Shown here piece by piece: positions 4,717 to 21,526 of a stretch of DNA of 64,000 nt (its first letter is position 1; each line of letters begins with the position of its first letter). The translations under genes were made by a program, and so were the position numbers. The DNA comes from an uncultured bacterium (GTDB taxonomy: Bacteria > Actinomycetota > Acidimicrobiia > Spongiisociales > UBA5794), in the NCBI GenBank assembly GCA_963801165.1, contig CAWDDT010000006.1:256001-320000 (forward strand), in the 5' to 3' direction. A model generated the notes under the pieces. It did not search any database and was not told the origin of the DNA. It worked only from the letters and a program-made list of their open reading frames with translations.

Positions 4717-5091
4717 CTACTCGCAGAACTCGGTGTAGGCGGCCGAGTCCATCAAATCGTCGAGCCTCGAGAGGTCGCCGTCGATGAGTATGAACCATCC
4801 GGCACCGTAAGGGTCGCTGTTGATGATCTCCGGTTGATCCGCCAGGGCCTCGTTGATGGCTGTTACCGTCCCGTCGATGGGCGCGTAGACATCGGCCACC
4901 GACTTGGTGGACTCGATCTCGGCAAACGATTCCCCCGCGGTCACGCCGGCACCGACGTCCGGGAGGTCCACGAAGACGACGTCTCCGAGTGCGTCCTGGG
5001 CGTAGTCGGTGATCCCCACTTTGGCCTTGCCGTCCTCGACGGCGACCCATTCGTGGTTCTCCGTGTAGCGAAGTCCATCTGGAATCTGCAC
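4717..5091 (-). CDS. gcvH: Glycine cleavage system H protein
   Basis: YTENHEW, VGITDYAQDALGDVVFV, lipoyl-Lys in IESTKSV, INSDPYGAGW. Confidence 0.95.
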   Translation of the reverse strand: MQIPDGLRYTENHEWVAVEDGKAKVGITDYAQDALGDVVFVDLPDVGAGVTAGESFAEIESTKSVADVYAPIDGTVTAINEALADQPEIINSDPYGAGWFILIDGDLSRLDDLMDSAAYTEFCE

Positions 5092-7059: not shown

Positions 7060-7464
7060 TCATGTCCGAGAATCGTGGGAAAGCAGATCCCATCGGTTGC
7101 CTTCGAGATCGAGGAAGACGGCGAGACGCCCGTACGGTTCCGTGCGAGGTTGCGAGACGAATTCCACGCCTGCGTTGACCATCCGCTCATAGGTGGAGTG
7201 AAAGTCGTCTACCCGAAGGAAGAATCCCACTCTCCCCGCAACTTGGTCTCCGGCCCTCTCGGCCTGACGTTCGCCGTCAGCCTGAGCAAGAAGTAGCCCG
7301 GTTTGCGCGTTCCGCGGCTTCACGACGACCCATCGTTTTGGTCGGCCATCGTTCGTCAGAGACGGCGAGTCGTCAACGAGCTCGAAGTCGAGGACATCTA
7401 TGAAGAACCTGACGGCAGCGTCGTAGTCCCGCACGATCAGAGTGACTAAGTCGATATGCGCCAA
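7060..7464 (-). CDS. VOC/glyoxalase family protein
   Basis: HIDLVTLIVRDYDAAVRFF...KRWVVV...EPYGRLAVFLDLEGNRWDLL; TTG start after a GGAGG RBS. Confidence 0.88.
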   Translation of the reverse strand: MAHIDLVTLIVRDYDAAVRFFIDVLDFELVDDSPSLTNDGRPKRWVVVKPRNAQTGLLLAQADGERQAERAGDQVAGRVGFFLRVDDFHSTYERMVNAGVEFVSQPRTEPYGRLAVFLDLEGNRWDLLSHDSRT

Positions 7465-7571
7465 TGGATGAATACCTCCGAATTGTCCGGTCTGACCTCG
7501 AAGTCGAATCCTATGTCGCAAACACGACGTCGAGACACCGGCCACCGAACGGAATTGGTCATCGACCGAGG

Positions 7572-7940
7572 CTACCCCGCACGTAGCCTGGCGCGGCGCG
7601 CCCGGGTCCAGCCCAGGCCGATCCGCCAGGCGACCAGACCGAAGCCGTTGACGAGGATCGTCACCAGCACGAACACCCAGGGTATGTCGCGGTCGAGGGC
7701 CATCCCGCGTAGGAACGTCGCCAATGGCGCCGCCAGCAGCCACGCCCAGGCAACCCGCCATATACCCCCGGGGGAATCAATGGTGGCTTCCTCGTAGACA
7801 CCCAGGAAGGGGGCGACGGCGGCCCAAGCCAGCAGCCCGCTGAGCGCGGTGACCAGAAACCGTCCCACCGCATCGAGGGTGGCGTGGGTGGCAAACCCCA
7901 CAACGGTCAGCAGCACCAGCACGGCAGCGTCGCCGATCAT
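7572..7940 (-). CDS. DUF3054-like membrane protein
   Basis: GDAAVLVLLTVVGFATH followed by four hydrophobic segments ending WR; start could be at 8009. Confidence 0.7.
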   Translation of the reverse strand: MIGDAAVLVLLTVVGFATHATLDAVGRFLVTALSGLLAWAAVAPFLGVYEEATIDSPGGIWRVAWAWLLAAPLATFLRGMALDRDIPWVFVLVTILVNGFGLVAWRIGLGWTRARRARLRAG

Positions 7941-7945
7941 TGCGG

Positions 7946-7999
7946 TTCTCTGGGTCGGTGTGATTCTCTGGGTCGGTGTGATTGTCTGGGTCGGTGTGA
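7946..7999. repeat. 3 x 18-bp tandem repeat
   Basis: TTCTCTGGGTCGGTGTGA x2 plus TTGTCTGGGTCGGTGTGA, with no spacers. Confidence 0.9.
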
Positions 8000-8054
8000 A
8001 TCGAGGCATGCAGCCAGGGACACTACCCCAGCGACCGTGCCACCAGACGCATCG

Positions 8055-8136
8055 GGGACCCGACCCGGGACTTTATGGGCCTTTTGGCCCTATGAGCGAC
8101 ACCGTCGCAGACGTATTACATACGGTATATATGCGG
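8055..8136 (+). promoter_or_regulatory. Promoter region of the tusA-hydrogenase operon with a DosR/DevR/OsdR-like box
   Basis: TGGGCCTTTTGGCCCT at 8076-8091; possible -10 TACGGT at 8121-8126; AT-rich ATTACAT-N5-ATATATGCGG at 8115-8136, repeated at 22186-22207. Confidence 0.55.
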
Positions 8137-8289
8137 AAGTGTGAATAGATCCTATGTCGTTTACGGGCGAAAACGCATTGGTGCCAACCGGAAGGCCACC
8201 TCTGGTCACGGATCCGCTACACGACGCCCTCCCTCTCGACAACAGCTCCACCCCCTGGAGCGCGTCCCTTTCCCCCTGAGGAGGTTCCA

Positions 8290-8526
8290 ATGTCCGTAGC
8301 CGCCGATGAAGTTCTCGACTGCAGCGGCCTGGCCTGTCCCATGCCGATTCTGAAGACCAAGAAGGCAATCGATGCGCTAGAGCCCGGGAAGATCTTGAAG
8401 ATGATCGCCACCGACGCCGGCTCGCAAAGCGACATCGATGCTTGGACGAACCGAACGGGCCACGTGCTCGTCGATTCCGAAGTGTCCGGCGACAAGTTCA
8501 TCTTCTTTATCCAGAAGAAGGCCTGA
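8290..8526 (+). CDS. tusA: Sulfur carrier TusA-family protein
   Basis: LDCSGLACPMPILKTKKA (CPxP motif), ATDAGS..DI.AW; GAGGAGG RBS. Confidence 0.93.
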   Translation: MSVAADEVLDCSGLACPMPILKTKKAIDALEPGKILKMIATDAGSQSDIDAWTNRTGHVLVDSEVSGDKFIFFIQKKA

Positions 8527-8527
8527 G

Positions 8528-8998
8528 ATGGGCACAACCAGGCGCTTGGGCATCATTGCCGGCCACGGGACTCTGGATGCCGCCTATCCCCCATTGATCC
8601 TCGCCACCTCGGCGGCGGCACTGGACATGGAGGCCGCCATCTTCTTCACCTTTTACGGGCTGGAGATCATCAAGAAGGGCCAGGCAGACAAGCTCCAGGT
8701 AGCGCCGATCGGCAATCCGGCCATGCCGGTATCCGTTCCCAACATCGTCGGCATGCTCCCCGGCATGACCGCCATGGCCACCCGCATGATGAACGGCTGG
8801 ATGGAGAAGGCCAACGTCGCCAAGGTCAGCGAGCTGCTCGAAATGGCGCAGATGGCCGAGGTCCGTCTCATCGCCTGCCAGATGACAATGGATGTGATGG
8901 GTATCAAGAAGGAAGACCTCATGGACGGCGTCGAGATCGGTGGCGCCACCACGTTCCTCGCCTACGTCGGCGAGGACGCCATCAGCCTCTCGTTCTAG
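8528..8998 (+). CDS. DsrE/DsrF/DrsH-like sulfur relay protein (DsrE2 type)
   Basis: GTLDAAYPPLILATSAAA..FFTFYGL and LIACQMTMDVMG (catalytic Cys). Confidence 0.9.
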   Translation: MGTTRRLGIIAGHGTLDAAYPPLILATSAAALDMEAAIFFTFYGLEIIKKGQADKLQVAPIGNPAMPVSVPNIVGMLPGMTAMATRMMNGWMEKANVAKVSELLEMAQMAEVRLIACQMTMDVMGIKKEDLMDGVEIGGATTFLAYVGEDAISLSF

Positions 8999-9056
8999 CG
9001 GAGTGTGCTGATGAATCGCCGTGCTTCAGGGCACTTCGTTGAAGGGAATGCCAGCA

Positions 9057-9425
9057 ATGGATGAAGACAAGGTATTGATCGTCATGACCAGCGGCCCGGA
9101 CACACCGCGCCGCTGTGCCACCCCGTTCTTCATGGCCAATCTGGCCGCGGTCATGGATCAGGAAGTGACGATGTTCTTCACGATCGACGGCATCAAGCTC
9201 GTCGAAAAGGGCGTCGCTGAGGACATCTACCCCAAGGCAGGCGGCAAGTCGGTCGCCGAGTTTCGTGACGACTGCATCGAAGCCGGGGTCAAGTTCCTGG
9301 CCTGCACTGCGGCTACCGAACTGCATGATCTCACCGAAGACGACCTGATCGACGAAGTCGAGATGGCCGGCGGCGCAACCATGATGGCCATGGCCACCGA
9401 AGCCGGCACCGTGCTGAGTTTCTGA
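9057..9425 (+). CDS. DsrE-family sulfur transferase
   Basis: TSGPDTPRRCATPFFMA..MFFTIDG..FLACTAA; two conserved-looking Cys. Confidence 0.88.
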   Translation: MDEDKVLIVMTSGPDTPRRCATPFFMANLAAVMDQEVTMFFTIDGIKLVEKGVAEDIYPKAGGKSVAEFRDDCIEAGVKFLACTAATELHDLTEDDLIDEVEMAGGATMMAMATEAGTVLSF

Positions 9426-9435
9426 GGAGGAGAAC

Positions 9436-9882
9436 ATGGCAACAGTCAACGGCTGCGACCTGCCCGAGGACGTCTTCTACAACCTGGAGAAGCACACCTG
9501 GGCGAGGTTGCTCGATGATGGCACAGTCCGGCTCGGAATGACCTCCGTTGCCGGCAAGCTGGCTGGTGGCACACTCGCTGCAGTCACGGTGTCTGCCCGC
9601 AAGGTCGGCAAGGAGATCGCGGCCGGCAAGAGCGTCGCCACCGTTGAGAGCAGCAAGTACGTCGGCCCTGTGCCGACGCCGGTCTCGGGAACACTGCTGC
9701 GAGGGAACGACCGCCTCGTCAACGAGCCGAATCTGGCGGTATCGGACCCCTACGGGGACGGATGGATCGCCGAGGTGACTCCCTCCGACTGGGACGGCGA
9801 GAGCCCGGCGCTGCCATCAGGCGCCGCCGGTGTCGCCGCCTACCAGGCGTGGCTGGAGGCAGAGGGGGTGTCCTGCACCTAG
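9436..9882 (+). CDS. lbpA: GcvH-like lipoate-binding protein, LbpA type
   Basis: Lipoyl-Lys in ATVESSKYVGP; DPYGDGW; N-terminal GC.LP and C-terminal Cys; lacks the GITDYAQ of true GcvH. Confidence 0.8.
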   Translation: MATVNGCDLPEDVFYNLEKHTWARLLDDGTVRLGMTSVAGKLAGGTLAAVTVSARKVGKEIAAGKSVATVESSKYVGPVPTPVSGTLLRGNDRLVNEPNLAVSDPYGDGWIAEVTPSDWDGESPALPSGAAGVAAYQAWLEAEGVSCT

Positions 9883-9940
9883 GTACGGATCCATTGCAGG
9901 CAGACACGCCCCGACCAAGCCGAACCGGAGGAGGGGACCT

Positions 9941-11080
9941 ATGGGCGAAGAATCGATATACGAACATCTAGCCAAACAAGGGGTCAGCCGCCGAGACTTC
10001 ATCACTTACTGCGGAGTCATCGCCGGAGGACTCGGACTCAACCACCTGGCACCAGTAGGCGCCAGCGGGCTGCCGGCGAGACTCGCCGACGTACCGACAC
10101 CCGATCTGACCGCGATGGTCAGCCGTGCACTCCAGACCAAGCCCCGGCTCCCGGTCATCTGGCTCGAATTCCAGGACTGCGCGGGATGCACCGAGGCTCT
10201 GACCCGATCGCAGTCACCGACGCTGATCGATCTCGTGCTGAACAAGATATCCATCGACTACCACGAGACGTTGTTCGCCGCGGCAGGGTTCCAGGCCGAG
10301 CAGAACCGCGACGCGGTCATGGAGCAGTACAACGGGCAGTACGTGCTGGTGGTCGAAGGCAGCATCCCGGTCGCCGACGGCGGCATCTATTGCACCGTCG
10401 GTGGGCGCACCGCGGTCGACATCGTCGAACAGGCGGCTGCGGGGGCCGCGGCCATCATCGCCACCGGCAACTGCGCTGCGTACGGGGGAATCCCCAAGGC
10501 GAAACCCAACCCCACAGGCGCCAAGGGCTTGATGGACATCATCACCGACAAGCCCGTGGTCAACATCCCGGGTTGCCCGGCGATCCCCGAATCGTTCACC
10601 GGCACCCTCGCCCACTTCCTGATCTTCGGAGAGCTGCCGGAGCTCGACGACCTGGGCCGACCCAAGGCGTTCTACGGAACGACCATCCACGACCGCTGCT
10701 TGCGGCGCCCCTTCTACGAGGCGGGCAAGTTCGCCAAGAGCTTCGACGACGAAGGAGCTCGCCACGGCTGGTGTCTCTACAAGCTCGGCTGCAAAGGCCC
10801 GACTACCTACAACGCCTGCGCCACGATCAAGTGGGACGGCGGCCTCTCGTTCCCGATCCAGTCGGGGCACCCGTGCCTCGGATGCTCCCAGCCGGACTTC
10901 TGGGACGGGGGCGGCTTCTACCAGGGTCAGTCTGCGCCGCTCGATAGGCCGGGCGTCACGATGGTCGGTACCGCGGCTGTGGTGGGTGCGGCCGCCGGTG
11001 CCGGGTTTGCGGTAGCGAACCGCTCGGCAAAGAAGCGTCTCGAGACCATCGAGGTAGCACCCGGAGAGGAGTCGTCATGA
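9941..11080 (+). CDS. hynS: Group 1 [NiFe]-hydrogenase small subunit
   Basis: Tat motif SRRDF, QDCAGCTE, GNCAAYGG, PGCP, IHDRC, WCLYKLGCKGP, HPCLGC; C-terminal membrane anchor. Confidence 0.95.
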   Translation: MGEESIYEHLAKQGVSRRDFITYCGVIAGGLGLNHLAPVGASGLPARLADVPTPDLTAMVSRALQTKPRLPVIWLEFQDCAGCTEALTRSQSPTLIDLVLNKISIDYHETLFAAAGFQAEQNRDAVMEQYNGQYVLVVEGSIPVADGGIYCTVGGRTAVDIVEQAAAGAAAIIATGNCAAYGGIPKAKPNPTGAKGLMDIITDKPVVNIPGCPAIPESFTGTLAHFLIFGELPELDDLGRPKAFYGTTIHDRCLRRPFYEAGKFAKSFDDEGARHGWCLYKLGCKGPTTYNACATIKWDGGLSFPIQSGHPCLGCSQPDFWDGGGFYQGQSAPLDRPGVTMVGTAAVVGAAAGAGFAVANRSAKKRLETIEVAPGEESS

Positions 11081-11754
11081 CCTGGACCGACACGCTCGAG
11101 TTCCTCCGGGGACCACTCTTCCGGATCGCGTTCCTCGTCTTCATCGCCGGGCTGGCGTACCGCCTGATCCGGGTGGTGACGCTGGGGTGGCCCAAGGACA
11201 AGGTGCTCTCGGCGGGCAGCAAGGCCAAAGGTGTAGCGACCACGTACGTCAAAGCGATCGGCATCTTCCCGTTCATCCCCTGGGTGAAAAAGACGTTCAA
11301 CGGCAATGCGGTGACGTTTCTCGCCGGCGGGATGTTCCATGTTGGGTTGATATCCGTGATCCTCCTGGGGACCGCCCACATGCTGGCGTGGAAGAGCCTG
11401 CTCGGCTTCGGATGGCCGACGCTGTCTCTGCCGATCATCGACTGGCTCGCCGCCGCCACCATCGCTGCCATGGTTGCTCTGCTGGTGAACCGCTTGACCC
11501 ATCCGGTCGTGCGCAAGCTGTCGGGGCCGGCGGAGTTCCTCAACTGGACGCTCGTCTTCCTGCCGATGGTGACCGGCTACATGATGACCCATCACATGTT
11601 CTTCAGGTATGAAACGCTGTTCAGCCTGCACATGTTGACCGTCGACGTGATGTTGATCTGGATCCCGTTCAGCCGGCTGTCGCACTTCGTGTTCTATTTC
11701 TTCTCACGAACGATCCACGGGGCGCAGTTCGGCAAACGTGCGGTGACTCCGTAG
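11077..11754 (+). CDS. isp1: Isp1/DsrM/NarI-like membrane cytochrome b
   Basis: About five TM helices; heme His candidates in MFHVG, TAHM, SLHML, PFSRLSHF; located between the hydrogenase subunits. Confidence 0.8.
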   Translation: MTWTDTLEFLRGPLFRIAFLVFIAGLAYRLIRVVTLGWPKDKVLSAGSKAKGVATTYVKAIGIFPFIPWVKKTFNGNAVTFLAGGMFHVGLISVILLGTAHMLAWKSLLGFGWPTLSLPIIDWLAAATIAAMVALLVNRLTHPVVRKLSGPAEFLNWTLVFLPMVTGYMMTHHMFFRYETLFSLHMLTVDVMLIWIPFSRLSHFVFYFFSRTIHGAQFGKRAVTP

Positions 11755-11757
11755 GAG

Positions 11758-13032
11758 GTGGCCATGAGTACACACATAGCTCTAGACACGTTCGTAGCGG
11801 AGACAGGTGGCTGGGTTGCGGCACAGCTCGAGGCGTGCACCCGCTGCGGTATCTGCGCCGAGGCGTGCCATTTCTACCAGGCCACAGGCAACCCCGATTT
11901 CGCCCCCGTGTGGAAGATCGAGGTGCTTCGCAAGGCCTACGAGCAGCGGATGACACCGGGCGGCAAGCTGAAGACCGCATTTCATATCGAGAAGAAGATC
12001 GACGACCAGGAGCTCCTCGACTGGAGCAAGATCGTCTACGAAGCATGCACGGTGTGCAACAAATGCTCGATGGCATGCCCGATGGGCATCGACCTGGGCC
12101 CGCTGATCCACAACGTCCGCACCGGCCTCGCCGCGGCGGGCCTGGTTCCCGCGGACCTTGCTGCGGCCGTGCAGAAGCAGCTCGACGAGGGCAGCCCGCT
12201 CGGTGTGACCGATGACGTTTTCGCCGACCGGATGGACTGGGTACAGGACGACTGGGACGTCGACATCCCGATCGACAAGGAAGGCGCCGACACGATGGTC
12301 GTCTTCTCGTCGATCGAGATCATGAAGTTCCCCGAGAACCTCGCTGACATCGCCAGGATCCTCAACACAGCCGGCGAGAACTGGACCTTGAGCTCCAAAG
12401 GCCGTGAAGTGGTGAACTTCGGTTTCTACGAGGGAAGCCCCGAGCACACTGCGTTGTTCCTGCAGAAGCTGGTCGACGCAGCGACTGAGTTGAAGGTCAA
12501 GAAGATCGTCGTCACCGAGTGCGGGCACGCATACGACGCGCTCCGGTGGACCGCCGCCAATCTGATCGATGTTCCCAAGGAACTCGAAATCACCCACATC
12601 GTTGCGTTGATGGACAAGTTCGTCAGCGAAGGCAAGATCAAACTGAAGAAAGGTGCCTTTGACGGAAGCGGCGGCATCGCGTTCCACGATGCCTGCAAGA
12701 TCCAGCGGCGTGGTGGCCATATCGAGGAGCCGAGGCGGCTGCTCAACATTCTGGCGCCCGAGTCGTTCCGCGAGTTGACCCCCAACAAGGAGCAGGCCAT
12801 CTGCTGCGGCGGCGGTGGTGGCGTGATCGCGATCAAGGAAGCCGATCCGTACCGCTTCGCCGTGTTCGGTCTCAAGATCGATCAGGCGAAGGTAGCCGGA
12901 GCGGACACAGTGGTGATGGCGTGCTCCAACTGCCGTCTCCAGTTCCTCGACGGGATCCAGCACTACGGCTCCGAGCTGAAGATCAAGGGACTATCGAACA
13001 TGGTTGCCGAGGCGATGGAAGGAGCGAACTGA
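11758..13032 (+). CDS. isp2: Isp2/DsrK/HdrD-like Fe-S protein with CCG domain
   Basis: CTRCGICAEAC and CTVCNKCSMACP ferredoxin motifs; TECGH, HDAC, CCGGGGG, ACSNC. Confidence 0.88.
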   Translation: MAMSTHIALDTFVAETGGWVAAQLEACTRCGICAEACHFYQATGNPDFAPVWKIEVLRKAYEQRMTPGGKLKTAFHIEKKIDDQELLDWSKIVYEACTVCNKCSMACPMGIDLGPLIHNVRTGLAAAGLVPADLAAAVQKQLDEGSPLGVTDDVFADRMDWVQDDWDVDIPIDKEGADTMVVFSSIEIMKFPENLADIARILNTAGENWTLSSKGREVVNFGFYEGSPEHTALFLQKLVDAATELKVKKIVVTECGHAYDALRWTAANLIDVPKELEITHIVALMDKFVSEGKIKLKKGAFDGSGGIAFHDACKIQRRGGHIEEPRRLLNILAPESFRELTPNKEQAICCGGGGGVIAIKEADPYRFAVFGLKIDQAKVAGADTVVMACSNCRLQFLDGIQHYGSELKIKGLSNMVAEAMEGAN

Positions 13033-13352
13033 TGGCGTCATTCACTCTGACTCCCGTGGAGAAGGGCATCATGCGCTGCCGCCACACCGGCGAGCTCAGC
13101 CATGAGGATGTGCAGACCCTCGCATCCTTCTTGCACGACTATCGAGGGAAGCTCCTGATCGACCTCACCGACATCACCGGGGAGGAGTGCGGCCGGCATA
13201 TCCATGAGTTCGCACCGATGATGCCGACCGCCGCCATCTTCGGGGCCGAGCTGGACCCGGGAGTGCTCGACTTCCCGGAGAGCTACTACACACACCAGGT
13301 GAAGCTATTTGACACAGAGGCCGAGGCGCTCGCCTGGCTTCGCGAGCAATAG
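13032..13352 (+). CDS. Small SpoIIAA/STAS-SEC14-like protein
   Basis: KLLIDL core and FDTEAEALAWL C-terminus; TGATG overlap with isp2. Confidence 0.6.
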   Translation: MASFTLTPVEKGIMRCRHTGELSHEDVQTLASFLHDYRGKLLIDLTDITGEECGRHIHEFAPMMPTAAIFGAELDPGVLDFPESYYTHQVKLFDTEAEALAWLREQ

Positions 13353-13360
13353 GAGGTCCC

Positions 13361-15100
13361 GTGGCTACACGATTGGTTGTAGACCCGATTACCCGTATCG
13401 AGGGGCACCTCCGCATCGAAGCGGAGCTGGACGCCGACAACACGATCACCGCGGCTTACTCGTCGGGCACGATGGTGCGTGGCATCGAGATCATCCTCGA
13501 GGGCCGCGACCCGCGCGACGCCTGGGCATTCGCCCAGCGCGCCTGTGGGGTGTGCACCACCGTGCACTCGTTCGCCTCGATCCGTTCGGTTGAGGACGCC
13601 CTCGACATCCAGATTCCGCATGCGGCCAACCTCATCCGGAACCTGATGATCGCCCAGCAGTACGTACACGACCATGTCATGCACTTCTATCACCTGCATG
13701 CCCTCGACTGGGTCGACATCGTCAATGCTCTCCAGGCCGACCCTGCCGAGACGTCGGCGATCCAGCAGAGCATCTCCACCTGGAAGAACTCGTCGCCTGG
13801 ATACTTCGCCGACGTACAGAAGAAGGTGCAGTCAATCGTCGACAGCGGCCAGCTGTCGATCTTTGCCAACGCCTACTGGGGTCATCCGGCGTACAAGCTC
13901 CCACCCGCGGTGAACCTGCTGGCGGTCGCCCACTACCTGGAGGCCCTCGACTGGCAGTCGCACGTCACCAAGATCCACACGATCTTCGGCGGCAAGAACC
14001 CGCACCCGAATTTCGTTGTCGGCGGTGTTCCGATGCCGATCGATCTGAACAGCGACACGGCGCTGAATGCCTCGAGACTGTCGATCATCTCCGACTCGAT
14101 CGACCGGATCATCGAGTTCGTCGACCAGGTCTATCTGCCCGACGTGCTGGCGATCGCACCCAACTACCTCGAGTACGCATCGATCGGTGAGGGTTTGGGC
14201 AACTTCCTCACCTGGGGCGAGCTTCCCGGAGATGACAACCGCGACACATCGAAGTTCCTGGTGCCCCGGACCCTGATCGTCAACCGTGACCTGACGACGA
14301 TCACCGAACCGGACCCGCGCGACTTTGAGCGGATGCAGGAGTTCATCACCCATTCTTGGTACGAGTACGCCGACGGTGACAACGCCGGGCTCCACCCCTG
14401 GGATGGTGAGACCAAGTTCAACTACACAGGTCCTCAGCCACCATATGAGGAGCTGAACGTTGACGGGAAGTACTCCTGGCTCAAGGCACCGCGCTGGAAC
14501 GGCATGCCGGTCGAGGTGGGACCGCTCGCCCGAGTTCTCGCCTTGTATGCGACCGGTCACGCACAGACCGTCGACCTGGTCGACGCCACCTTGAAAGCCC
14601 TCGACGCTCCCCTAGGCGCCGTCTTCTCCACATTGGGGAGAACCGCGGCAAGGGCGATCGAGTCCAAGGTGTTTGCGGACTCCTTGCGTACGACGTACGA
14701 CGAGTTGATCGCGGCGATCAAGGCCGGTGACACCAGGACCTTCAACAACGACCGCTGGGAGCCCCGCTCCTGGCCGAGCGAGGCACGCGGTTTCGGCTTC
14801 ATGGAAGCCCCCCGCGGCGCCCTCGGTCACTGGATCGTCATCAAGAACCGGAAGATCGAGAACTACCAGATGGTCGTCCCGACCACCTGGAACGCGTCGC
14901 CTCGCGACGGCAACGGGCAAGCGGGTGCCTACGAGGCATCGCTGCTCAACCACAAATTGGCGAAGCCCGAGTGGCCGCTCGAGATCCTGCGTACGATCCA
15001 CTCATTCGACCCGTGCATGGCCTGCGCCATCCACATGATCGACGCCACCGGCGAGTCGGTCGCCGAGGTTGCCACCGGCATGAACGTCTGCATGACATGA
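13361..15100 (+). CDS. hynL: Group 1 [NiFe]-hydrogenase large subunit
   Basis: VDPITRIEGH, L1 QRACGVCTTVH, EAPRGALGHW, L2 SFDPCMACAIH plus cleavable C-terminal tail. Confidence 0.97.
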   Translation: MATRLVVDPITRIEGHLRIEAELDADNTITAAYSSGTMVRGIEIILEGRDPRDAWAFAQRACGVCTTVHSFASIRSVEDALDIQIPHAANLIRNLMIAQQYVHDHVMHFYHLHALDWVDIVNALQADPAETSAIQQSISTWKNSSPGYFADVQKKVQSIVDSGQLSIFANAYWGHPAYKLPPAVNLLAVAHYLEALDWQSHVTKIHTIFGGKNPHPNFVVGGVPMPIDLNSDTALNASRLSIISDSIDRIIEFVDQVYLPDVLAIAPNYLEYASIGEGLGNFLTWGELPGDDNRDTSKFLVPRTLIVNRDLTTITEPDPRDFERMQEFITHSWYEYADGDNAGLHPWDGETKFNYTGPQPPYEELNVDGKYSWLKAPRWNGMPVEVGPLARVLALYATGHAQTVDLVDATLKALDAPLGAVFSTLGRTAARAIESKVFADSLRTTYDELIAAIKAGDTRTFNNDRWEPRSWPSEARGFGFMEAPRGALGHWIVIKNRKIENYQMVVPTTWNASPRDGNGQAGAYEASLLNHKLAKPEWPLEILRTIHSFDPCMACAIHMIDATGESVAEVATGMNVCMT

Positions 15101-15699
15101 GCGGGCGCCACGTCGTACTCGGCATCGGCAACATCCTCAACCGTGACGAGGGTTTGGGGGTAAGGGCGCTCGATCTGCTCGAAGAGCGGGTCGGCGTCGT
15201 CCCCGATGTCGAGTACGTCGACGGCGGTGTGATGGGCCTGACGCTGCTACCTCTAGTCGAAGAGTGCGACCATCTCCTCGTCCTCGACGCCATCGACGCC
15301 GGGGCCGAGCCGGGCGAGCTCATCGAGATGAGCGGAGACGAGATACGGCTGTTCAGCGGAGTCAAGATGTCCGAGCACCAGATCACCTTCCAGGAGGTCT
15401 TGGGGTTGGCGTTCATCCGTGACAAGCTCCCCCCTCACTTGCACCTCATAGGTGCGCAGCCCGCGAACCTGTCCATCGGCCTCGAGATCTCGGACCGGGT
15501 GCGCCGCACTCTCTCCCCCATCGTCGTGCGAGCCGCGGCAGTGCTACGCGACTGGGGATTCGAAGTGCCCGATGGGCTGGAAGGTAGCGACCGGGGGGAG
15601 GGGTCACGGTCGACGACGACCATCGCAGATCCTTCCGACGGTCCTATCCCCCCGACGTGGGCGGACAGCCGCGTCCCGAGCCGTCTCGGACCGGCCTGA
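15097..15699 (+). CDS. Hydrogenase maturation protease (HyaD/HybD family)
   Basis: VLGIGNILNRDEGLG, VDGG, LDAID, SEHQ. Confidence 0.92.
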   Translation: MSGRHVVLGIGNILNRDEGLGVRALDLLEERVGVVPDVEYVDGGVMGLTLLPLVEECDHLLVLDAIDAGAEPGELIEMSGDEIRLFSGVKMSEHQITFQEVLGLAFIRDKLPPHLHLIGAQPANLSIGLEISDRVRRTLSPIVVRAAAVLRDWGFEVPDGLEGSDRGEGSRSTTTIADPSDGPIPPTWADSRVPSRLGPA

Positions 15700-15701
15700 C
15701 C

Positions 15702-15995
15702 ATGTGTCTCGGGATCCCCAGTCGCGTCGTGTCACTCGAGAAGAATCTCCTCGGCATGACCATGGGGCGCGTCGAAGCGGGTGGTGTGGTTCGAGAGGTG
15801 TGCCTTGACTACGTTCCCGACGCTACGGTCGGCGATTACGTAATGGTCCAGATGGGCTTTGCCGTCAACCGGATCAGCGACGAGGAAGCCGGCGACGTCC
15901 TCGATGCGCTCGAGCAACTCGTTGACCTCAGTCCGATCGATCGCGATAGCCTCCCTTCAGGGTCCGGTGCCCTCAGAAGCGAGAACAACCAATGA
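15702..15995 (+). CDS. hypC: HypC/HybG/HupF hydrogenase chaperone
   Basis: MCLGIP N-terminus, VGDYVMVQMGFA. Confidence 0.92.
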   Translation: MCLGIPSRVVSLEKNLLGMTMGRVEAGGVVREVCLDYVPDATVGDYVMVQMGFAVNRISDEEAGDVLDALEQLVDLSPIDRDSLPSGSGALRSENNQ

Positions 15996-17044
15996 GACAG
16001 ATAAGGGTGCTGAACCTCGGCGAGGTGGACTCGGTCCGCTCTCAGTCGATCTATCACGCCGTCGGGAGGGCGCTCACCGCCGATTCCCCCGACACCATCA
16101 TCATGGTGACGGGCAAGGACCCTTATGTGTCGATCGGCTTTCACCAGGATCTGCACAGCGAAGTCGACACCGACTTCTGCGCCAGCGCCGGCTTGACGGT
16201 GGTGCGACGCGAGGTCGGCGGCGGCGCCGTGTATCTCGACCGCAACCAGATGTTCACCCAGTGGGTGTTTCACAACTCCAGCCTCCCTGGTGACCTCAAC
16301 GACCAGTTTGCGCTATATATCAAGCCGCTTGTCGACACGTATCGGGCGCTCGGCATCGACGCCTATCTGCGCCCCGTCAACGACATCCACGTCGACAACA
16401 AGAAGATCGGCGGCACCGGCGCCGCCCAGATCGACGAGGCCCGGGTGCTCGTCGGCAGCCTCATGTTCGACTTCGACAAGGCAACCATGGCCAGGGTGCT
16501 CAAGGTCCCGGACGAGAAGATGCGTGACAAGATCTTCGCCGGTCTCGAGCAATACATGGTGACGATGGCCGATCTGCTCCCCGAGTCGCCGGACCGCGAT
16601 GCCACCATTACGCTCTATCTCGAGAAGTGCGCCGAGACGCTCGACGCCGAGCTCGTCCCCGGCGAGCCCACCGCACATGAGTTGGAGATAGCAGCCGAGC
16701 TCGACGACCTCTTCGTCAGTGAGGAATGGCTCAACGCCAGGACTTCCCTCCCCCGCGATGGCGTCAAGATCCACGAGGGGGTCTCCGTGATCGGTGGGAT
16801 GTTCAAGTCACCGGGTGGGCTGATCCGGGCCACGGCCCATCGCATCGACGGTGCCCTTGCCGACGTCAACTTCTCCGGCGACTTCACCATCCTGCCTGCG
16901 GAGGGCCTCAAGGTCCTGGAAGATGCGGCGGCAGGGGACGTCACAGGTGTCCGGGGCCGTCTCCAATCGGTCTACACCGAGTACGACCTCGAGACACCCG
17001 GCGTCCTCCCCGAGCATTTCGTCGCTGCCCTGCTTGGCGGCTGA
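15992..17044 (+). CDS. Lipoate:protein ligase, Lpl(AB) domain order
   Basis: RREVGGGAVY, PVNDI..KKIGGTG catalytic domain; C-terminal accessory domain KSPGGLIR..FSGDF. Confidence 0.9.
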   Translation: MRQIRVLNLGEVDSVRSQSIYHAVGRALTADSPDTIIMVTGKDPYVSIGFHQDLHSEVDTDFCASAGLTVVRREVGGGAVYLDRNQMFTQWVFHNSSLPGDLNDQFALYIKPLVDTYRALGIDAYLRPVNDIHVDNKKIGGTGAAQIDEARVLVGSLMFDFDKATMARVLKVPDEKMRDKIFAGLEQYMVTMADLLPESPDRDATITLYLEKCAETLDAELVPGEPTAHELEIAAELDDLFVSEEWLNARTSLPRDGVKIHEGVSVIGGMFKSPGGLIRATAHRIDGALADVNFSGDFTILPAEGLKVLEDAAAGDVTGVRGRLQSVYTEYDLETPGVLPEHFVAALLGG

Positions 17045-17772
17045 TGACGGCCGCCGACATCTTCGCTCGCTATGCCTACCCGCCAAATGAGCTGGGCTAT
17101 TGCGGCCCCGCCAACAGTGGTGAGGTGCTCAGCTGCGGTCTCGCCGGTCTCGAGGCCACGGCCCGGTGCTTTGAGGGTACCTGGCCGTACTTCGAGTTCA
17201 TCGCGACAAGACACGGGCTCGACCCCCTCGACGGGCGGGTTGTCGAATCATACTGGCTCGGTGGTGCGCTAACCGAAGGTCTGGATGTGAAGGTCGAGGG
17301 CGCCGACCTGCTGGAGGAACTGGCCCGTGCAGGCGGCACCTGGGCACACAGCACCGAAGATCTGCTCCCCGGCATGACCCCCGATCACAACTTCCATGTG
17401 TTCGCCATCTACCCGTGGCTCGGCTTGCTCTCGCGCAACCTGAGCGACCAGCCCCGTTTGGTGCTCGACCGGTGCCGGATCCGCTGGGGTGAGCTGATCG
17501 CGATCGATGGTGATACCGCAACGGTCGCCTCAGCTGCGATCGAATGGGATGGAGAGCGTCTCAGCCTCGGACCAAGCCGTAATGAGGCTGTGGTTCTGGC
17601 GAAAGGCCCGATCAGGCTGGCAGGAGAGGTCTCCCCAGGAGATGTGGTGGCGTTGCACTGGAACTGGATCTGTGGAGCGATCTCGCAGGAGCAGTTGGCT
17701 CATCTGCGCCGGTCGACGGCGACCCACCTGGACATCGCCAACCAGCGTCTGGAGCTAGGGTTGGTGGACTGA
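17044..17772 (+). CDS. DUF6390-like hydrogenase-associated protein
   Basis: FARYAYPPNELGYCGP, VESYWLG, HNFHVF, LDRCRIRWG, GDVVALHWNW. Confidence 0.75.
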   Translation: MTAADIFARYAYPPNELGYCGPANSGEVLSCGLAGLEATARCFEGTWPYFEFIATRHGLDPLDGRVVESYWLGGALTEGLDVKVEGADLLEELARAGGTWAHSTEDLLPGMTPDHNFHVFAIYPWLGLLSRNLSDQPRLVLDRCRIRWGELIAIDGDTATVASAAIEWDGERLSLGPSRNEAVVLAKGPIRLAGEVSPGDVVALHWNWICGAISQEQLAHLRRSTATHLDIANQRLELGLVD

Positions 17773-17862
17773 CAGCAAGTCCGGGAACTCGACGACGGAC
17801 CTGAACGTCCTATCGTTGCGGGCCATCCCAGCAAAGGGTTCCGCTCGATCCCAGGGAGGACG

Positions 17863-18864
17863 ATGACACGAGCGTGTGCGATCGCTGCATTGAGCCTGTT
17901 GATGGCGACCGGCTGCACTGTCAGCGGCGATCCTCATTCGGGGACGGCATCAGAAACCACCCCGGCCGTGCCCGCGACACACGTCGCGCCGCCTGGTTCA
18001 GAATCCACGCAGGCAGCAACGTCTACCGTCCCGACGACGCCAGCCCTGCGCGTGACGGGCCCAGACGCAAACGGTACATACGCGGTTGTTGCAGCCACGG
18101 TCGACGCGTGGAGAACCTGCTGGGACGACACCGCCCCCTCCGAATACCAAATGTCTGTCGCCGTAGCCGCGTTCGCGTTGCTCCCAGCCAGCGTCTCTCA
18201 CGTCATCGACGGAGAGGCTGTCGAAGCGTACGGGTCCGGTGACGATCCGGTCACGATGATCAACGTCTGGGAAGGTATCGACAGACTGCTGAGCAATCGA
18301 CCCGACTCGATCGCGATCGAGTTCGACCCCGATCTCTGCTATCCGACATTTATCGGAGTCGATGAGGATCGTGCCATTGAGGACGACGGGATGACCGAGC
18401 GCATCCTCATGCAGCCCGGAGGTCGGCCCGAGGGTCGGCAGGTGATCGGCTCTGTCGATCATGTCGATTACGCGGACGCCACGGATGAGAACACCACGAC
18501 GGTTGTGCTAGAGGATGGTTCGAGTTTCGATGTCCACCTAGCGGATGACATCTGGAGACAATGCCGGAAAGACACCTCTGGCTGTGGGGCGCTGGCCATC
18601 CTCGACGACTCGGGTGACGCTCTGTACGCCTTGCCGTTGTCGCTCAACGCCGATCGCACGCAGTGGCACGTCCCAACCGTCGGTGTGTTGGACATCGCGG
18701 GCGACCCACTTGTGCTCTGGGAAGGTCCTGTGCTGGACCGTGCCAACGAGCTTGACGCGTCACAGTGCAATGGCAGCATCGAGATCGGTGTAGCCACGGC
18801 GATCGGCGGCGAGATCCTCGTCGAGACGGTCACCGGCGTGGCCACCGGATACACCTGTTGGTGA
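17863..18864 (+). CDS. Putative lipoprotein (DUF6174-like central domain)
   Basis: Lipobox MATGC, Thr/Pro linker, FDPDLCYPTFIGVD; GGAGG RBS. Confidence 0.65.
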   Translation: MTRACAIAALSLLMATGCTVSGDPHSGTASETTPAVPATHVAPPGSESTQAATSTVPTTPALRVTGPDANGTYAVVAATVDAWRTCWDDTAPSEYQMSVAVAAFALLPASVSHVIDGEAVEAYGSGDDPVTMINVWEGIDRLLSNRPDSIAIEFDPDLCYPTFIGVDEDRAIEDDGMTERILMQPGGRPEGRQVIGSVDHVDYADATDENTTTVVLEDGSSFDVHLADDIWRQCRKDTSGCGALAILDDSGDALYALPLSLNADRTQWHVPTVGVLDIAGDPLVLWEGPVLDRANELDASQCNGSIEIGVATAIGGEILVETVTGVATGYTCW

Positions 18865-19178
18865 TCCGTTCCAGCGTGGGCCTGGTGTCATCGCCCGAGC
18901 TGTCCGAATCCGGCGAGATCACGCCTGCGCGCTACCACCCCGTTGCGTCGCCACATCCGCGAATCGTCGACAACCTCCTAATGTCGTCCTAGGAGGGCGC
19001 TGGTAATCGCCGAGAAGGCCTGCACGCAGTGCAGGTACGGTCGCTCCACCCCTGATTCCTCGCTGTTCCTGACCAGGTATCGAGCCTGAACTGGAATTAT
19101 TCAGCACGCTGCTAGGAGGGTCGTTCGCGTAGACGCCGACGACCGTGGCGGGAGGTGCCCGCCGCTAGGGTGTCGCCA

Positions 19179-19379
19179 ATGTTCACATCACGCCAAAGGT
19201 TTCTCGTGGCGGCAGGATCGACCATCCTGCTCGCTATCACGGTGGTCGCCTTTCTGTTGTTCGACCGGAACTCGCACTCCGCCAGCGACACGCTGCGCCC
19301 GTTCCTGATCCTCATGGTTCCTGTTTGGCTGTTTGCGCTAGGCATCGGCCGGTACCTCATCACCGGCAGGCGTCGCTGA
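19179..19379 (+). CDS. Small two-helix membrane protein
   Basis: MFTSRQRFLVAAGSTILLAITVVAFLLF...PFLILMVPVWLFALGIGRYLI. Confidence 0.5.
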   Translation: MFTSRQRFLVAAGSTILLAITVVAFLLFDRNSHSASDTLRPFLILMVPVWLFALGIGRYLITGRRR

Positions 19380-19588
19380 CCGGCCGCACCAAGCGCCCCC
19401 CCATCCCTTCTTGCGGACGTGAAGCCTACGTGTAGACATGACGTACGCCGGAACGCGGACGCCGCCGACCCCCCGGCTTCCGGCGTCTCGAGTGCCTACA
19501 TGCTGACATGGTGTACGCAAGAGCGCCGACGTCGACGAGCCGCTCCGGACCGCTTCAACCGGATGAGCCGACACGTCACGAACGCAAC

Positions 19589-21526
19589 TCAGGGCAACAG
19601 GATTCCTCTCCCCACCAGCCTGATCGCGGTCGGGTCGTCGACGAGGCCCGCGATGGTCTGTGCCAGTGATCGGTCTGCCACGGGCACCTGCACCTCCACC
19701 CGGCCGCCCGGTCCGGTGGCGACCGCATACGAGCCGCCGATCTCAGGAATGTCGCGAAGGAGCGGAACGATGGAGTCCTGGATACGACGCTGTTCCGCCT
19801 CACTGCGCGAGACTTCGATCACGCACGCCCCGCCCGAGGCCGCCAACGCCTCCCGGTGGGGCGCCGGATCCCCGACCACCTGGAGAACGAGCGTGCCGTC
19901 GTTGGCTACGTAGAGACCACCGTTGGCATCACCCAGCGAGCTGGCGTACTGATTGATCGGGCCGGCCCCGGCCCCGGTGGCAACGCCTTGACACTCGGCG
20001 GGGAGCTCGCCGGGCGGGTAGCGGAGACCGAGATCCAGGTATGACGCTTCCGACTGGCTGATGACTTCTACCGCACCATCCACGGGCGGCCAGGTGACGA
20101 CGAGTGTCTGCTCACCCCACCGGACACCACTTGCCTCTTCCGTCCACCCCTCCATATCGAGCCCATTGGCCACAGGTCCGGAGCATTGCGGCGGGAGGGA
20201 ATCCATGACCGCGCCGAGGCAGAGTTCGGGACCATCCCCGGAATCGATGACCGTCGTGGTGACCTCGACATGGGTTGCTTGCGCGGGCAGGTTATCCAGA
20301 CGTGTCGGCGTGACCACCTCGACGCCTTCCACCTCGTACACACGCATGTCGGGATTGGCGTTTGGCTCGGCGACGGTCGTTGTGGTTGGCTCGACTGGAG
20401 CCCCTTCCCGACGAAACGTCACCGGATGCGACGCACCCTCGAGGTTGCTGCCGTACCACTCCATCGTGTCGCCGTCCATGACCACCTCGATACCATCCGG
20501 CGTGTTCCGAAGCACGGCCAGGAGCACGCTCTGGGCGGTATCTCTGCCGCAGCCTCCGGCAGTCGCAACCACTTCTCCATGCGTGAGGAATCCGGCCGAG
20601 TACTCAAAATCGGTCGGCCAGATGGCGTTGCACCCCGTCGATCCCTCGAACGTGCCGGCGACCCCAGCACTGGTGACTTCGTCGACTGCAAACTCGAGCC
20701 ACGGCTCGTCATCCGCATTCACGCCTGGTTCGATCCGGATCTCATCGTTCCCTTCCTGCCACGATGCAAAGATCCAGTGCCCCTCAATTGCTCCAGGGCC
20801 GCCGGGAACCGCACTCGAAGTTGTAGTTGACAACGTCGTGGTCGATGTACTCTCGGACGATGCCGAGTCCGTGCGACGTAAGGTCAGCGGAGACCACGTA
20901 CTCACGGCATTCCTGCCGTACCACTCCATCGTGTCGCCGTCCATGACAACTTCGATCCCGGCGGGGTTGTTCACTACCATGGCCCGCAAGACTCGTTCCG
21001 CAGTGTCCGGATCGCACCCCATGGCCGTCGTGTCCATCTGCCCCAGGTCGAGAAAACCCGCGGAGTAGTGGTAGTTGGCCAGCACGATTCCATTGCATCC
21101 TGTCGATCCGGTGAAGGTTCCGACCGTGCCCCCGCTGTCAGGTGCCGCGGTGAACACAAGAAACACTTCACCGGTCGTGTTGACCCCAATCTTGACCGGA
21201 ATCTGTTTCCCGTCTTCTTCCCACGACTCGAGAACCCACCTACCTTCGATCGAACCACCTGCAGCCGCATCCGAGGGCGGCGTTGCGGAATCGCCCGGCT
21301 CCCCACGGTCGCTGCTACCTACACGGCCGAGCAAGAGGATCGAGCCCACACCCACAAGGATCACAACAGCCGCGGCAACGGCAGCCAACCAACCGCTTCC
21401 GATCCGGTGCGACGGAGGCCCGAAGTCGTACTGCAATGACTCCCATGCCGGTGCGGGTGGCGCCTCGTCCAGCACGGGGGCGAGACCCTCGTTGAACACC
21501 GCCGCCACGTCGCGCTCATCGGTCAT
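19589..21526 (-). CDS. Membrane-anchored protein with two META-like domains (probable anti-sigma partner)
   Basis: N-terminal TM (WLAAVAAAVVILVGV), two repeats EGxW...GSTGCN...T.MGC/TAGGC; overlaps the end of the ECF sigma gene. Confidence 0.75.
   Translation of the reverse strand: MTDERDVAAVFNEGLAPVLDEAPPAPAWESLQYDFGPPSHRIGSGWLAAVAAAVVILVGVGSILLLGRVGSSDRGEPGDSATPPSDAAAGGSIEGRWVLESWEEDGKQIPVKIGVNTTGEVFLVFTAAPDSGGTVGTFTGSTGCNGIVLANYHYSAGFLDLGQMDTTAMGCDPDTAERVLRAMVVNNPAGIEVVMDGDTMEWYGRNAVSTWSPLTLRRTDSASSESTSTTTLSTTTSSAVPGGPGAIEGHWIFASWQEGNDEIRIEPGVNADDEPWLEFAVDEVTSAGVAGTFEGSTGCNAIWPTDFEYSAGFLTHGEVVATAGGCGRDTAQSVLLAVLRNTPDGIEVVMDGDTMEWYGSNLEGASHPVTFRREGAPVEPTTTTVAEPNANPDMRVYEVEGVEVVTPTRLDNLPAQATHVEVTTTVIDSGDGPELCLGAVMDSLPPQCSGPVANGLDMEGWTEEASGVRWGEQTLVVTWPPVDGAVEVISQSEASYLDLGLRYPPGELPAECQGVATGAGAGPINQYASSLGDANGGLYVANDGTLVLQVVGDPAPHREALAASGGACVIEVSRSEAEQRRIQDSIVPLLRDIPEIGGSYAVATGPGGRVEVQVPVADRSLAQTIAGLVDDPTAIRLVGRGILLP

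Follow-up and report, generated by a model that had tools for sequence, protein, structure and literature searches.

Isp-type (group 1e) [NiFe]-hydrogenases are thought to respire sulfur using H2, according to passages of PMC7735108. For the Hyd enzyme of Thiocapsa, passages of PMC10892978 describe S0 reduction with H2 and an Isp2 subunit that resembles heterodisulfide reductase, and a 2024 abstract states that confirmation of the link between Isp-type hydrogenases and sulfur metabolism is still required. The substrate of Isp2, and hence the tie of these hydrogenases to sulfur metabolism, has been open since their first description. The lipoate-binding protein LbpA and its lipoate ligase have so far been described only in sulfur-oxidizing sHdr systems. 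The signature of LbpA is a lipoyl lysine together with two near-terminal cysteines that GcvH lacks (Cao et al. 2018, PMC6067878); passages of a 2026 preprint place these cysteines at positions 7 and 145 in LbpA2 of Thioalkalivibrio TK90 and describe the surface of LbpA as less acidic than that of GcvH. Here, an operon that holds components of both systems is described from a 64,000-nucleotide stretch of DNA from an uncultured member of the Acidimicrobiia. This stretch, called the window, is C6:256001-320000 of a 4.55-Mb, 98% complete genome, and the operon lies at window positions 8290-17772.

The operon joins an Isp hydrogenase and the sHdr accessory set, two known systems, in a new combination. 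Full-text literature searches found no link of LbpA or a lipoate ligase to a hydrogenase, though supplementary tables might list such genomes. The operon places LbpA and its ligase in a hydrogenase context, offers Isp2 a concrete partner encoded in the same unit, and suggests that protein-bound lipoate may serve energy metabolism in a second way. We give an even chance to the reading that the locus works as one operon in which electrons from H2 pass through HynSL, Isp1, and Isp2 to lipoyl-LbpA and to sulfane sulfur bound by the relay proteins.

Gene content and layout

Pfam and NCBIfam scans identified 13 plus-strand genes that overlap or nearly abut, in the order tusA, dsrE2, dsrE, lbpA, hynS, isp1, isp2, a STAS-like open reading frame (ORF), hynL, a protease gene, hypC, a lipoate ligase gene, and a DUF6390 gene. 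Their window coordinates, with those of the leader, are as follows.

8151-8289, plus strand: leader sequence, whose GGAGG ribosome-binding site lies 7 nt ahead of the ATG of tusA; an RNA-library contig spans 8151-8585
8290-8526, plus strand: tusA, sulfur carrier (Pfam TusA, 82.8 bits)
8528-8998, plus strand: dsrE2, soluble DsrE2-type sulfur transferase (Pfam DrsE_2, 164.9 bits)
9021-9425, plus strand: dsrE-like sulfur transferase (Pfam DsrE, 66.3 bits); the likelier start is the ATG at 9048 or 9057
9436-9882, plus strand: lbpA, LbpA-type lipoate-binding protein (Pfam GCV_H, 90.6 bits)
9941-11080, plus strand: hynS, [NiFe]-hydrogenase small subunit (Pfam Oxidored_q6 and NiFe_hyd_SSU_C; NCBIfam hydA, 427 bits)
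11077-11754, plus strand: isp1, membrane protein (no Pfam match; NCBIfam TmcC, 123 bits, and HmcE, 112 bits, both below cut-off)
11758-13032, plus strand: isp2, cytoplasmic HdrD/DsrK-like iron-sulfur protein (Pfam Fer4_8 and CCG, the latter 46.8 bits)
13032-13352, plus strand: small STAS/SpoIIAA-like protein of 106 aa (Pfam SpoIIAA-like, 22.8 bits, below the 25-bit cut-off)
13361-15100, plus strand: hynL, [NiFe]-hydrogenase large subunit (Pfam NiFeSe_Hases, 759.5 bits)
15097-15699, plus strand: hydrogenase maturation endopeptidase of HyaD/HybD type (Pfam HycI, 83.4 bits)
15702-15995, plus strand: hypC/hupF-type chaperone (Pfam HupF_HypC, 82.2 bits); the protein begins MCLGIP
15992-17044, plus strand: lipoate:protein ligase (Pfam LplA-B_cat, 119.3 bits) with a C-terminal LplB-like domain
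17044-17772, plus strand: DUF6390 protein (Pfam DUF6390, 270.3 bits)

Every gene named in the original prediction was confirmed, but the count is 13 genes rather than twelve plus one, and the STAS-like label is weak at 22.8 bits. Inter-gene junctions, with starts taken from ORF translations, range from -4 to +10 nt with two exceptions: about 22-58 nt ahead of dsrE, whose start is uncertain, and a lbpA-hynS gap of 58 nt. The dsrE2 start lies 1 nt past the tusA stop, and the start of the STAS-like ORF overlaps the isp2 stop by 1 nt. No terminator-like site was found on the plus strand at 7400-19600, all three sites in that range lying on the minus strand. A sigma-70-like promoter scan and an inverted-repeat search upstream of tusA returned no matches, and no operator or promoter is therefore proposed.

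Joint transcription, which had been predicted, finds backing both in the overlapping or nearly abutting genes and in an RNA-library contig (9418-10075) that bridges lbpA and hynS. Metatranscriptome contigs from one library, out of four runs mapped, cover 8151-10075, 11671-12636, and 13982-15493 at about 95-97% identity. These contigs give no strand, ends, or expression level, and the uncovered 7500-7900 and most of 15520-19500 are uninformative.

The hydrogenase core

The HynS sequence shows a Tat signal with the twin-arginine motif SRRDF and, at its C terminus, a membrane anchor. The metal site of [NiFe] large subunits is defined by the motifs RxCGxC and DPCxxCxxH, and in HynL the corresponding RACGVC and DPCMACAIH are present, the latter followed by a C-terminal extension. 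The maturation protease scores 137.7 bits against NCBIfam hupD, below the 151.8 cut-off, and 122 bits against the hydrog_prot superfamily, above its cut-off of 47. The structural order hynS-isp1-isp2-hynL agrees with the Isp-type description in passages of PMC7735108 and PMC8551704, and the hydrogenase is assigned to the Isp type (HydDB group 1e) by gene order only.

All 16 sequences compared, hydrogenase-free relatives included, share four histidines of Isp1 (88, 101, 185, and 203), and Isp1 is taken to be a di-heme cytochrome b in which these residues would bind heme. Isp2 has two 4Fe-4S ferredoxin-type motifs and one complete CCG motif (Cys313, 349, 350, 389, and 392). All five cysteines, together with Cys255, which lies outside the CCG motif, are invariant in 31 of 31 sequences. 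Isp2 scores 205 bits against NCBIfam DsrK, 213 against HmcF, and 220 against TmcB, reaching none of the respective cut-offs of 400, 750, and 735.

LbpA, its ligase, and the sulfur carriers

The GcvH-like protein of the operon scores 92.7 against NCBIfam GcvH, below the cut-off of 117, whereas the canonical GcvH of the same genome passes at 166 bits; in another comparison the two copies scored 142.6 bits (canonical gcvH) and 90.4 bits (operon). Three residues do not vary among the 11 operon copies: Lys74, which aligns with the lipoyl lysine of the solved GcvH structure 3ift, Cys7, and Cys147. Median net charge, a crude whole-protein measure, is -3 in 13 hydrogenase-linked proteins, -5 in 20 sHdr-linked proteins, and -19 in 127 others including GcvH.

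A tree of LbpA and GcvH proteins, proposed as a check along with the original prediction, was built from 86 rows, for which 40 of the 126 rows lacking genomic context were drawn at random. Hydrogenase-linked LbpAs form a clade (support 100/99) inside a 38-row group that otherwise consists almost entirely of sHdr-linked LbpAs (94/79, moderate support), and canonical GcvH forms a separate clade (100/100). The operon protein thus branches with sHdr-linked LbpAs and apart from GcvH. Its next-nearest relatives, at 41-52% identity, sit in type II sHdr clusters, which contain CCG proteins, an sHdrA-like flavoprotein, EtfAB, EMO, two or three GCV_H genes, and a ligase. By these sequence characters the GcvH-like protein is of the true LbpA type, though found without an sHdr system, and it is predicted to be lipoylated.

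In a full-length comparison over 352 residues, the operon ligase shares 53% identity with its counterpart in type II sHdr cluster L098, and its residues 269-347 match NCBIfam LplB and PDB chain 3r07_C. It scores 93.6 bits against NCBIfam LplAB (cut-off 550) and 107 against lipoyltrans (cut-off 280), reaching neither. Housekeeping lipoylation is encoded elsewhere in the genome by an LplA-LipA fusion beside E2 and Lpd, and BLASTP detected no similarity between this fusion and the operon ligase. The latter is classed as a dedicated lipoate:protein ligase of the sLpl type, with its activity predicted. Ligases of two types occur among the loci, at 50-62% and 26-41% identity to that of the window, so the function appears to be kept though the gene has apparently been replaced. 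The LbpA tree, the two cysteines, the charge, and the ligase identity together indicate that the module of LbpA and ligase derives from an sHdr-type system.

The sulfur-relay proteins have conserved cysteines. All 13 aligned copies of TusA have Cys16, which belongs to the CPxP motif. DsrE2 scores 173 bits against NCBIfam SulfCarrDsrE2, below the cut-off of 210, and its Cys117 is invariant in eight of eight copies. All 13 copies of DsrE keep Cys83, and 11 of them have Cys20.

The canonical gcvH lies at 4717-5091 on the minus strand, 3.2 kb upstream of the operon, so that two H-type proteins are encoded close together on opposite strands. It is flanked by CDP-alcohol phosphatidyltransferase and MerR/BFN genes, a neighborhood also known from mycobacteria, and its product groups with Acidimicrobiia/Actinomycetota sequences in the tree, which makes an actinobacterial host likely. 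In two other loci (L016:383-1355 and L017:8745-9814), OsmC-like genes directly precede GcvH-like genes whose products branch inside the hydrogenase-linked LbpA clade (98/73 within 100/99) and have neither LbpA cysteine. These OsmC and GcvH-like proteins may form a lipoyl-dependent peroxidase pair derived from the LbpA lineage.

Absence of an sHdr core

A whole-genome search for CCG domains gave 12 matches and no sHdrC1B1AHC2B2 or type II sHdr cluster. The matches belong to LutABC, GlcDEF, a 715-aa EtfD/EMO-like protein, HdrB/HdrA-MvhDGA, Isp2, a 606-aa Fer4-CCG protein, and two 1056-aa frames; the five main CCG loci were scanned with Pfam, and the two 1056-aa frames lay outside these scans. 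The 715-aa NarI-Fer4-CCG protein (C9:566099-568246) is 32% identical to EMO of type II sHdr clusters and is probably an EtfD-type enzyme. In the Anaerolineaceae metagenome-assembled genomes (MAGs) G041 and G042, for which completeness is not given, Isp2 is the only CCG-domain protein found. The predicted lack of an sHdr core therefore held up, both by the genome-wide search and by these two MAGs. An sHdr system elsewhere in the genome, as the client of the accessory genes, is rejected, the major CCG loci being otherwise explained.

DsrC is likewise rejected as the substrate of Isp2 in this genome, since the sole DsrC-family gene encodes a TusE-like protein that ends in PKPQGCV and has one cysteine, without the second. 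With a single LipS-like query, taken from sHdr cluster L102, tblastn found no radical SAM match of this kind in the genome. In one hydrogenase locus (L244:158-1207), a gene for a LipS-like radical SAM protein with 49% identity to that of L102 stands beside a divergent ligase gene (26% identical to that of the window), from which it appears that some lineages pair the operon with lipoate assembly of the sLpl-LipS type.

Predicted contact between Isp2 and LbpA

A structure model of Isp2 with LbpA had also been suggested as a check, and the predicted complex passes its controls. It scored 0.61, and the best of three controls, a set that did not include canonical GcvH, scored 0.00; 58 of 80 solved complexes attain this score mark, compared with 2 of 110 mismatched pairs. 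Separate runs agreed in 100% of contacts, with a partner pLDDT of at least 90. On the LbpA side, the predicted interface comprises residues 73-78, the lipoyl-lysine hairpin that includes Lys74. On the Isp2 side, it comprises W161, D164-D165, the invariant M189-K-F-P192, and residues 397-401, which follow directly on the Cys389/Cys392 CxxC. The lipoyl hairpin of LbpA is thus predicted to dock beside the CCG cysteines of Isp2, which supports binding. We know of no solved HdrD-GcvH complex.

The contact residues of Isp2 also vary with its genomic context. M189 is kept in all 22 Isp2 proteins encoded with both hydrogenase and LbpA and in three of three hydrogenase-free, LbpA-linked relatives (35% identity), but in none of six LbpA-less Isp2 proteins (47-48% identity). 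In an Isp2 tree, 21 of the 22 LbpA-linked proteins form one clade (100/99), and the remaining one, L013, is sister to L246 and L247 (100/100); at the contact positions L013, which has LbpA, carries W, D, and M, whereas L246 and L247, which lack it, carry Q, A, and L. These patterns hint that the contact residues follow LbpA linkage, the lineages being few and related.

Conservation and variants

The core gene order recurs in 25 distinct loci outside the genus and in two congeners, mostly in Anaerolineae MAGs, with protein identities of 55-80% across phyla. Searching species genomes for relatives of the GcvH-like protein gave ten loci at 56-71% identity: eight in MAGs of Anaerolineae, Caldilineaceae, or Chloroflexota, one in Acidimicrobiia, and one in a genome labelled Eubacteriales. 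As far as contigs extend, all ten read tusA-dsrE2-dsrE-lbpA-hynS-isp1-isp2-hynL-protease/ligase. Among 401 species genomes of the class of G041, 14 (about 3.5%), mostly Anaerolineae by record titles, have an Isp2 at 63-70% identity; 13 of these 14 positive loci were examined, one duplicating an earlier locus. In ten of ten genome loci, three of three metagenome loci, and 13 of 13 class-sample loci, lbpA stands directly before hynS-isp1, as expected of an arrangement that had been predicted to be conserved in other genomes. Both tusA and the ligase gene are present in 11 of the 13 class-sample loci, the other two running into contig ends; eight of the ten genome loci have the ligase gene, and contig ends truncate each of the four loci in which it is missing.

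The system had been presented as that of an actinobacterium, which is correct for this genome but does not describe its main home. Anaerolineae hold most copies, and an Isp2 ortholog above 35% identity was found in none of 400 other genomes sampled from the phylum of the window. Within the genus, three of 15 genomes carry the locus, in the same chromosomal place. An actinobacterial origin is unlikely, given these counts of 0 of 400 and 3 of 15. The two congener copies, L201 (G014:C8) and L202 (G005:C3), are about 85% identical at the DNA level.

The STAS-like ORF, assigned to 'STAS/SEC14' clusters in the Atlas at 0.97, was found in four of 13 loci from the genome and metagenome scans and in seven of 13 class-sample loci. 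DUF6390 is encoded in both congeners and in no other locus scanned, and the Atlas clusters nearest to it by features and structure include some with HupF_HypC in 24-50% of members; it is specific to the form of the operon in this genus and, as a lead, may act as an accessory in hydrogenase maturation. An HTH_17-PocR regulator gene lies upstream of tusA in most Chloroflexota hydrogenase loci, not in the operon of this genome, and it also precedes the LbpA-less operon L246. It may encode a regulator that responds to sulfur or H2.

Several variants separate the components from one another. Sister Isp operons (L246-L249) comprise hynS-isp1-isp2-hynL and hyp genes without tusA, lbpA, or ligase. A hydrogenase-free module, of which we know no description, comprises genes for thioredoxin, ArsR, TusA, DsrE2, DsrE, a NarI-like cytochrome b, an Isp2-like CCG protein, and a two-cysteine LbpA. 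Five of the 401 class-sample genomes carry this module, which is represented by L250 (3892-8794), L251, L252, and L221-L225. A further arrangement (L180, L181, L183-L189, L228, L231, and L232) pairs tusA-dsrE2 with more distant Isp2/DsrK-like CCG proteins of 30-33% identity, no LbpA or hydrogenase gene lying within 1.5 kb. Several of the latter loci belong to small genomes (1.3-2.4 Mb) of the phylum of the window. Because of these variants, the recurrent unit appears to be a pair of cytochrome b and CCG protein with a sulfur relay, to which LbpA and the hydrogenase are additions.

Proposed mechanism and alternatives

In the proposed chain, HynSL would oxidize H2 outside the membrane, and the electrons would traverse the membrane via di-heme Isp1 to cytoplasmic Isp2. 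On lipoyl-LbpA, the CCG-bound cluster of Isp2 would reduce either the dithiolane disulfide or a sulfane sulfur that bridges the thiols, in an action likened to that of DsrK on the DsrC trisulfide. Reduced LbpA would free sulfide from persulfides delivered by TusA, DsrE2, and DsrE, and the co-encoded ligase would maintain the lipoylation of LbpA. The net reaction would be H2 + sulfane sulfur -> H2S, with protons released outside and consumed inside, so that the loop could conserve energy. Midpoint potentials are -414 mV for H2, about -290 mV for lipoamide, about -270 mV for S0/HS-, and about -75 mV for menaquinone, and by these values the path from H2 through LbpA to sulfur would run downhill. 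Such a course is consistent with the literature on Isp-type enzymes (PMC7735108 and PMC10892978).

A wider proposal is put forward tentatively, at slightly under an even chance: that lipoyl-LbpA is the physiological substrate of Isp2, that the operon encodes a lipoate-dependent H2:sulfur respiratory chain, and that Isp1/Isp2-like proteins with LbpA and TusA/DsrE constitute an as yet unrecognized, minimal membrane-bound relative of sHdr, existing in hydrogenase-wired and quinone-only forms. If true, lipoate would be a respiratory carrier of electrons and sulfur outside sulfur oxidation. The original prediction that LbpA names a substrate for Isp2 gains from the predicted contact and the co-varying residues, but it does not extend to Isp enzymes in general, since sister operons lack LbpA.

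Several observations weigh against the proposed chain. Both congener copies have many frame breaks, with tblastn matches to hynS, isp1, isp2, and hynL split over frames, which may represent assembly errors and indels or gene decay. The genomes with sister operons L246-L249 hold only a GcvH-like match of 32-40% identity, and because these operons lack LbpA it would not be needed for Isp function generally. The alignments behind the complex prediction were shallow, with 10 and 11 rows. The RNA-library contigs derive from a relative that is 95-97% identical, and DNA carry-over is possible. In 12 of 37 loci, checked over 1.5 kb to either side, tusA-dsrE2 stands beside an Isp2-like protein without LbpA, so the relay might feed Isp2 directly. 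The hydrogenase-free relatives can exchange electrons with the quinone pool only, and there the potentials of menaquinone and lipoamide favor oxidation of LbpA, so the Isp2-LbpA couple may run oxidatively. Neither a sulfur importer nor a rhodanese was found among the operon genes. All biochemical steps, including every transfer of electrons and sulfur, the chemistry, and the direction of flow, rest on inference.

The alternative that survives best, itself unlikely, keeps the same parts and reverses the flow. The module would then be a minimal membrane-bound counterpart of sHdr that oxidizes relay-bound sulfane sulfur or thiols via dihydrolipoyl-LbpA, Isp2, and Isp1 to quinone, and the hydrogenase would share it, so that both H2 and reduced sulfur feed respiration, for example through cytochrome bd. 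The quinone pool is the only evident partner in the hydrogenase-free loci L250-L252 and L221-L225, which makes these a natural comparison for the direction of flow, and their ArsR regulator is like the sulfane-sulfur-responsive repressors of sulfur oxidation described in the abstract of PMC12423496. Oxidation would also suit the derivation of LbpA and ligase from sulfur-oxidizing type II sHdr clusters, the position of cydAB near the operon in both the window and L013, and a cluster of SQR-like, TusE-like, and DsrE2 genes elsewhere in the genome. In every studied case, however, the conversion of sulfane sulfur to sulfite needs a multi-subunit sHdr, and here there is one CCG motif and no sHdrA, G041 and G042 having no other CCG protein at all. 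The position of isp1-isp2 between hynS and hynL argues that the hydrogenase supplies their electrons, and the only known physiological role in Thiocapsa is S0 reduction with H2, according to passages of PMC10892978.

A second alternative, which we consider improbable, casts LbpA as a general dithiol shuttle kept reduced by H2 via Isp2, serving persulfides under sulfide stress, OsmC/Ohr peroxidases, or NAD+ via Lpd, in a protective or redox-balancing role. Lipoyl-dependent activity is known for Ohr, and the genome encodes Lpd beside E2. The OsmC-adjacent proteins of L016 and L017 fall within the hydrogenase-linked LbpA clade, but their loss of both LbpA cysteines marks them as a derived use. 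An H-protein/OsmC peroxide-reducing system appears among the references of the 2026 preprint. No peroxidase or Lpd gene was found in the hydrogenase loci scanned, and tusA, dsrE2, and dsrE are kept in nearly every one of them, which points to sulfur as the specific substrate.

Least probable of all is a direct action of Isp2 on TusA/DsrE persulfide, as of DsrK on DsrC, with LbpA and ligase as regulatory, storage, or assembly accessories: the 12 LbpA-less loci and the existence of Isp operons without LbpA, among them L246, which retains genes for DsrE and the PocR regulator, speak for it, but the predicted interface is centered on the lipoyl lysine next to the CCG cysteines, the contact residues of Isp2 vary together with LbpA presence, and every complete locus encodes a dedicated ligase.

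Habitat and genomic setting

Parts of the stretch were found in 19 public runs from 16 studies. Five contain at least half of the sampled words, two are RNA libraries, and all are labelled as salt-marsh or soil metagenomes. Runs X11-X19, which contain only a small share, do not enter the habitat assignment. The operon may contribute to hydrogen and sulfur cycling in sediments.

Several further loci of the genome concern hydrogen. The genes hypF, hypC, hypD, and hypE lie at C4:144.6-149.4 kb. A second hydrogenase locus (C4:580890-587100, L004:4890-11100) encodes an HdrB-like protein with two CCG domains, HdrA, MvhD, and small and large subunits, and is group 3c-like; further matches to NiFe large subunits occur at C5:105056 and C11:107229. 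A DUF6174 lipoprotein is encoded 3' of the operon, and another DUF6174 gene (L004:20-1372) precedes the HdrB-like gene of the Hdr-Mvh locus by about 3.5 kb. The former (17863-18864) was considered as a member of the operon and rejected, since neither congener nor any other locus has it. The cydAB genes for cytochrome bd oxidase are found at 22348-24782 on the minus strand of the window, 4.6 kb downstream of the operon, and cydA also follows the hydrogenase in L013 (12046-13479). Their nearness may be a coincidence or a hint of microaerobic H2 use.

Other loci concern sulfur and electron transfer. At C6:598361-602519 (L177:4361-8519) are genes for HTH_17-PocR, an SQR-like Pyr_redox_2 protein, a 244-aa protein, a one-cysteine TusE/DsrC-like protein, DsrE2, and DUF302. 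A second tusA-dsrE2 pair at C5:39683-41441 (L176:6683-8441) is 43% and 50% identical to that of the operon; it lies directly 3' of a PLP-dependent cysteine-synthase-like gene, with another such gene about 3 kb upstream, and probably serves assimilatory sulfur transfer. EtfA/EtfB-like genes were detected in the window at 41908-43640 on the minus strand by tblastn with Etf proteins of sHdr clusters.

Comparison with known systems

The Isp-type (group 1e) hydrogenases of Thiocapsa, Allochromatium, Acidithiobacillus ferrooxidans, and Acidianus share with this operon the order of a Tat small subunit, Isp1, HdrD-like Isp2, large subunit, protease, and HypC. They differ in that tusA, dsrE2, dsrE, and lbpA lie upstream here and a lipoate ligase gene downstream, none of which is mentioned in passages of PMC7735108, PMC8551704, or PMC10892978, and sister Isp operons of the same bacterial class lack them.

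The sHdr-LbpA systems of sulfur oxidation, above all those of type II, which have EtfAB/EMO (Cao et al. 2018; Tanabe et al. 2023, 2024), share TusA, DsrE2/DsrE, a two-cysteine LbpA, and a dedicated ligase, and type II clusters contain the nearest relatives of the operon proteins (41-52% identity for LbpA, 49-53% for the ligase). In contrast to these systems, the genome has no sHdrA, B1, B2, C1, C2, or H, and it has a single LbpA where they have two or three. An HdrD-like protein bound to the hydrogenase would be the catalytic partner, and the reductive direction is likely.

DsrMK(JOP), HmcEF, and TmcBC resemble the operon in their pair of cytochrome b and CCG protein and in a small dithiol carrier fed by TusA and DsrE proteins. 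Isp1 and Isp2 score below the cut-offs of these families, and the carrier here would be lipoyl-LbpA, not DsrC.

In Methanosarcina, VhoGAC/VhtGAC and HdrDE link an extracytoplasmic hydrogenase, a cytochrome b, and disulfide reduction by cytoplasmic HdrD in a proton-motive redox loop, and the proposed chain follows the same logic. In that archaeal loop, methanophenazine connects the two enzymes and the substrate is CoM-S-S-CoB, whereas here hydrogenase and disulfide reductase are encoded as one unit and the proposed substrate is a protein-bound lipoamide disulfide.

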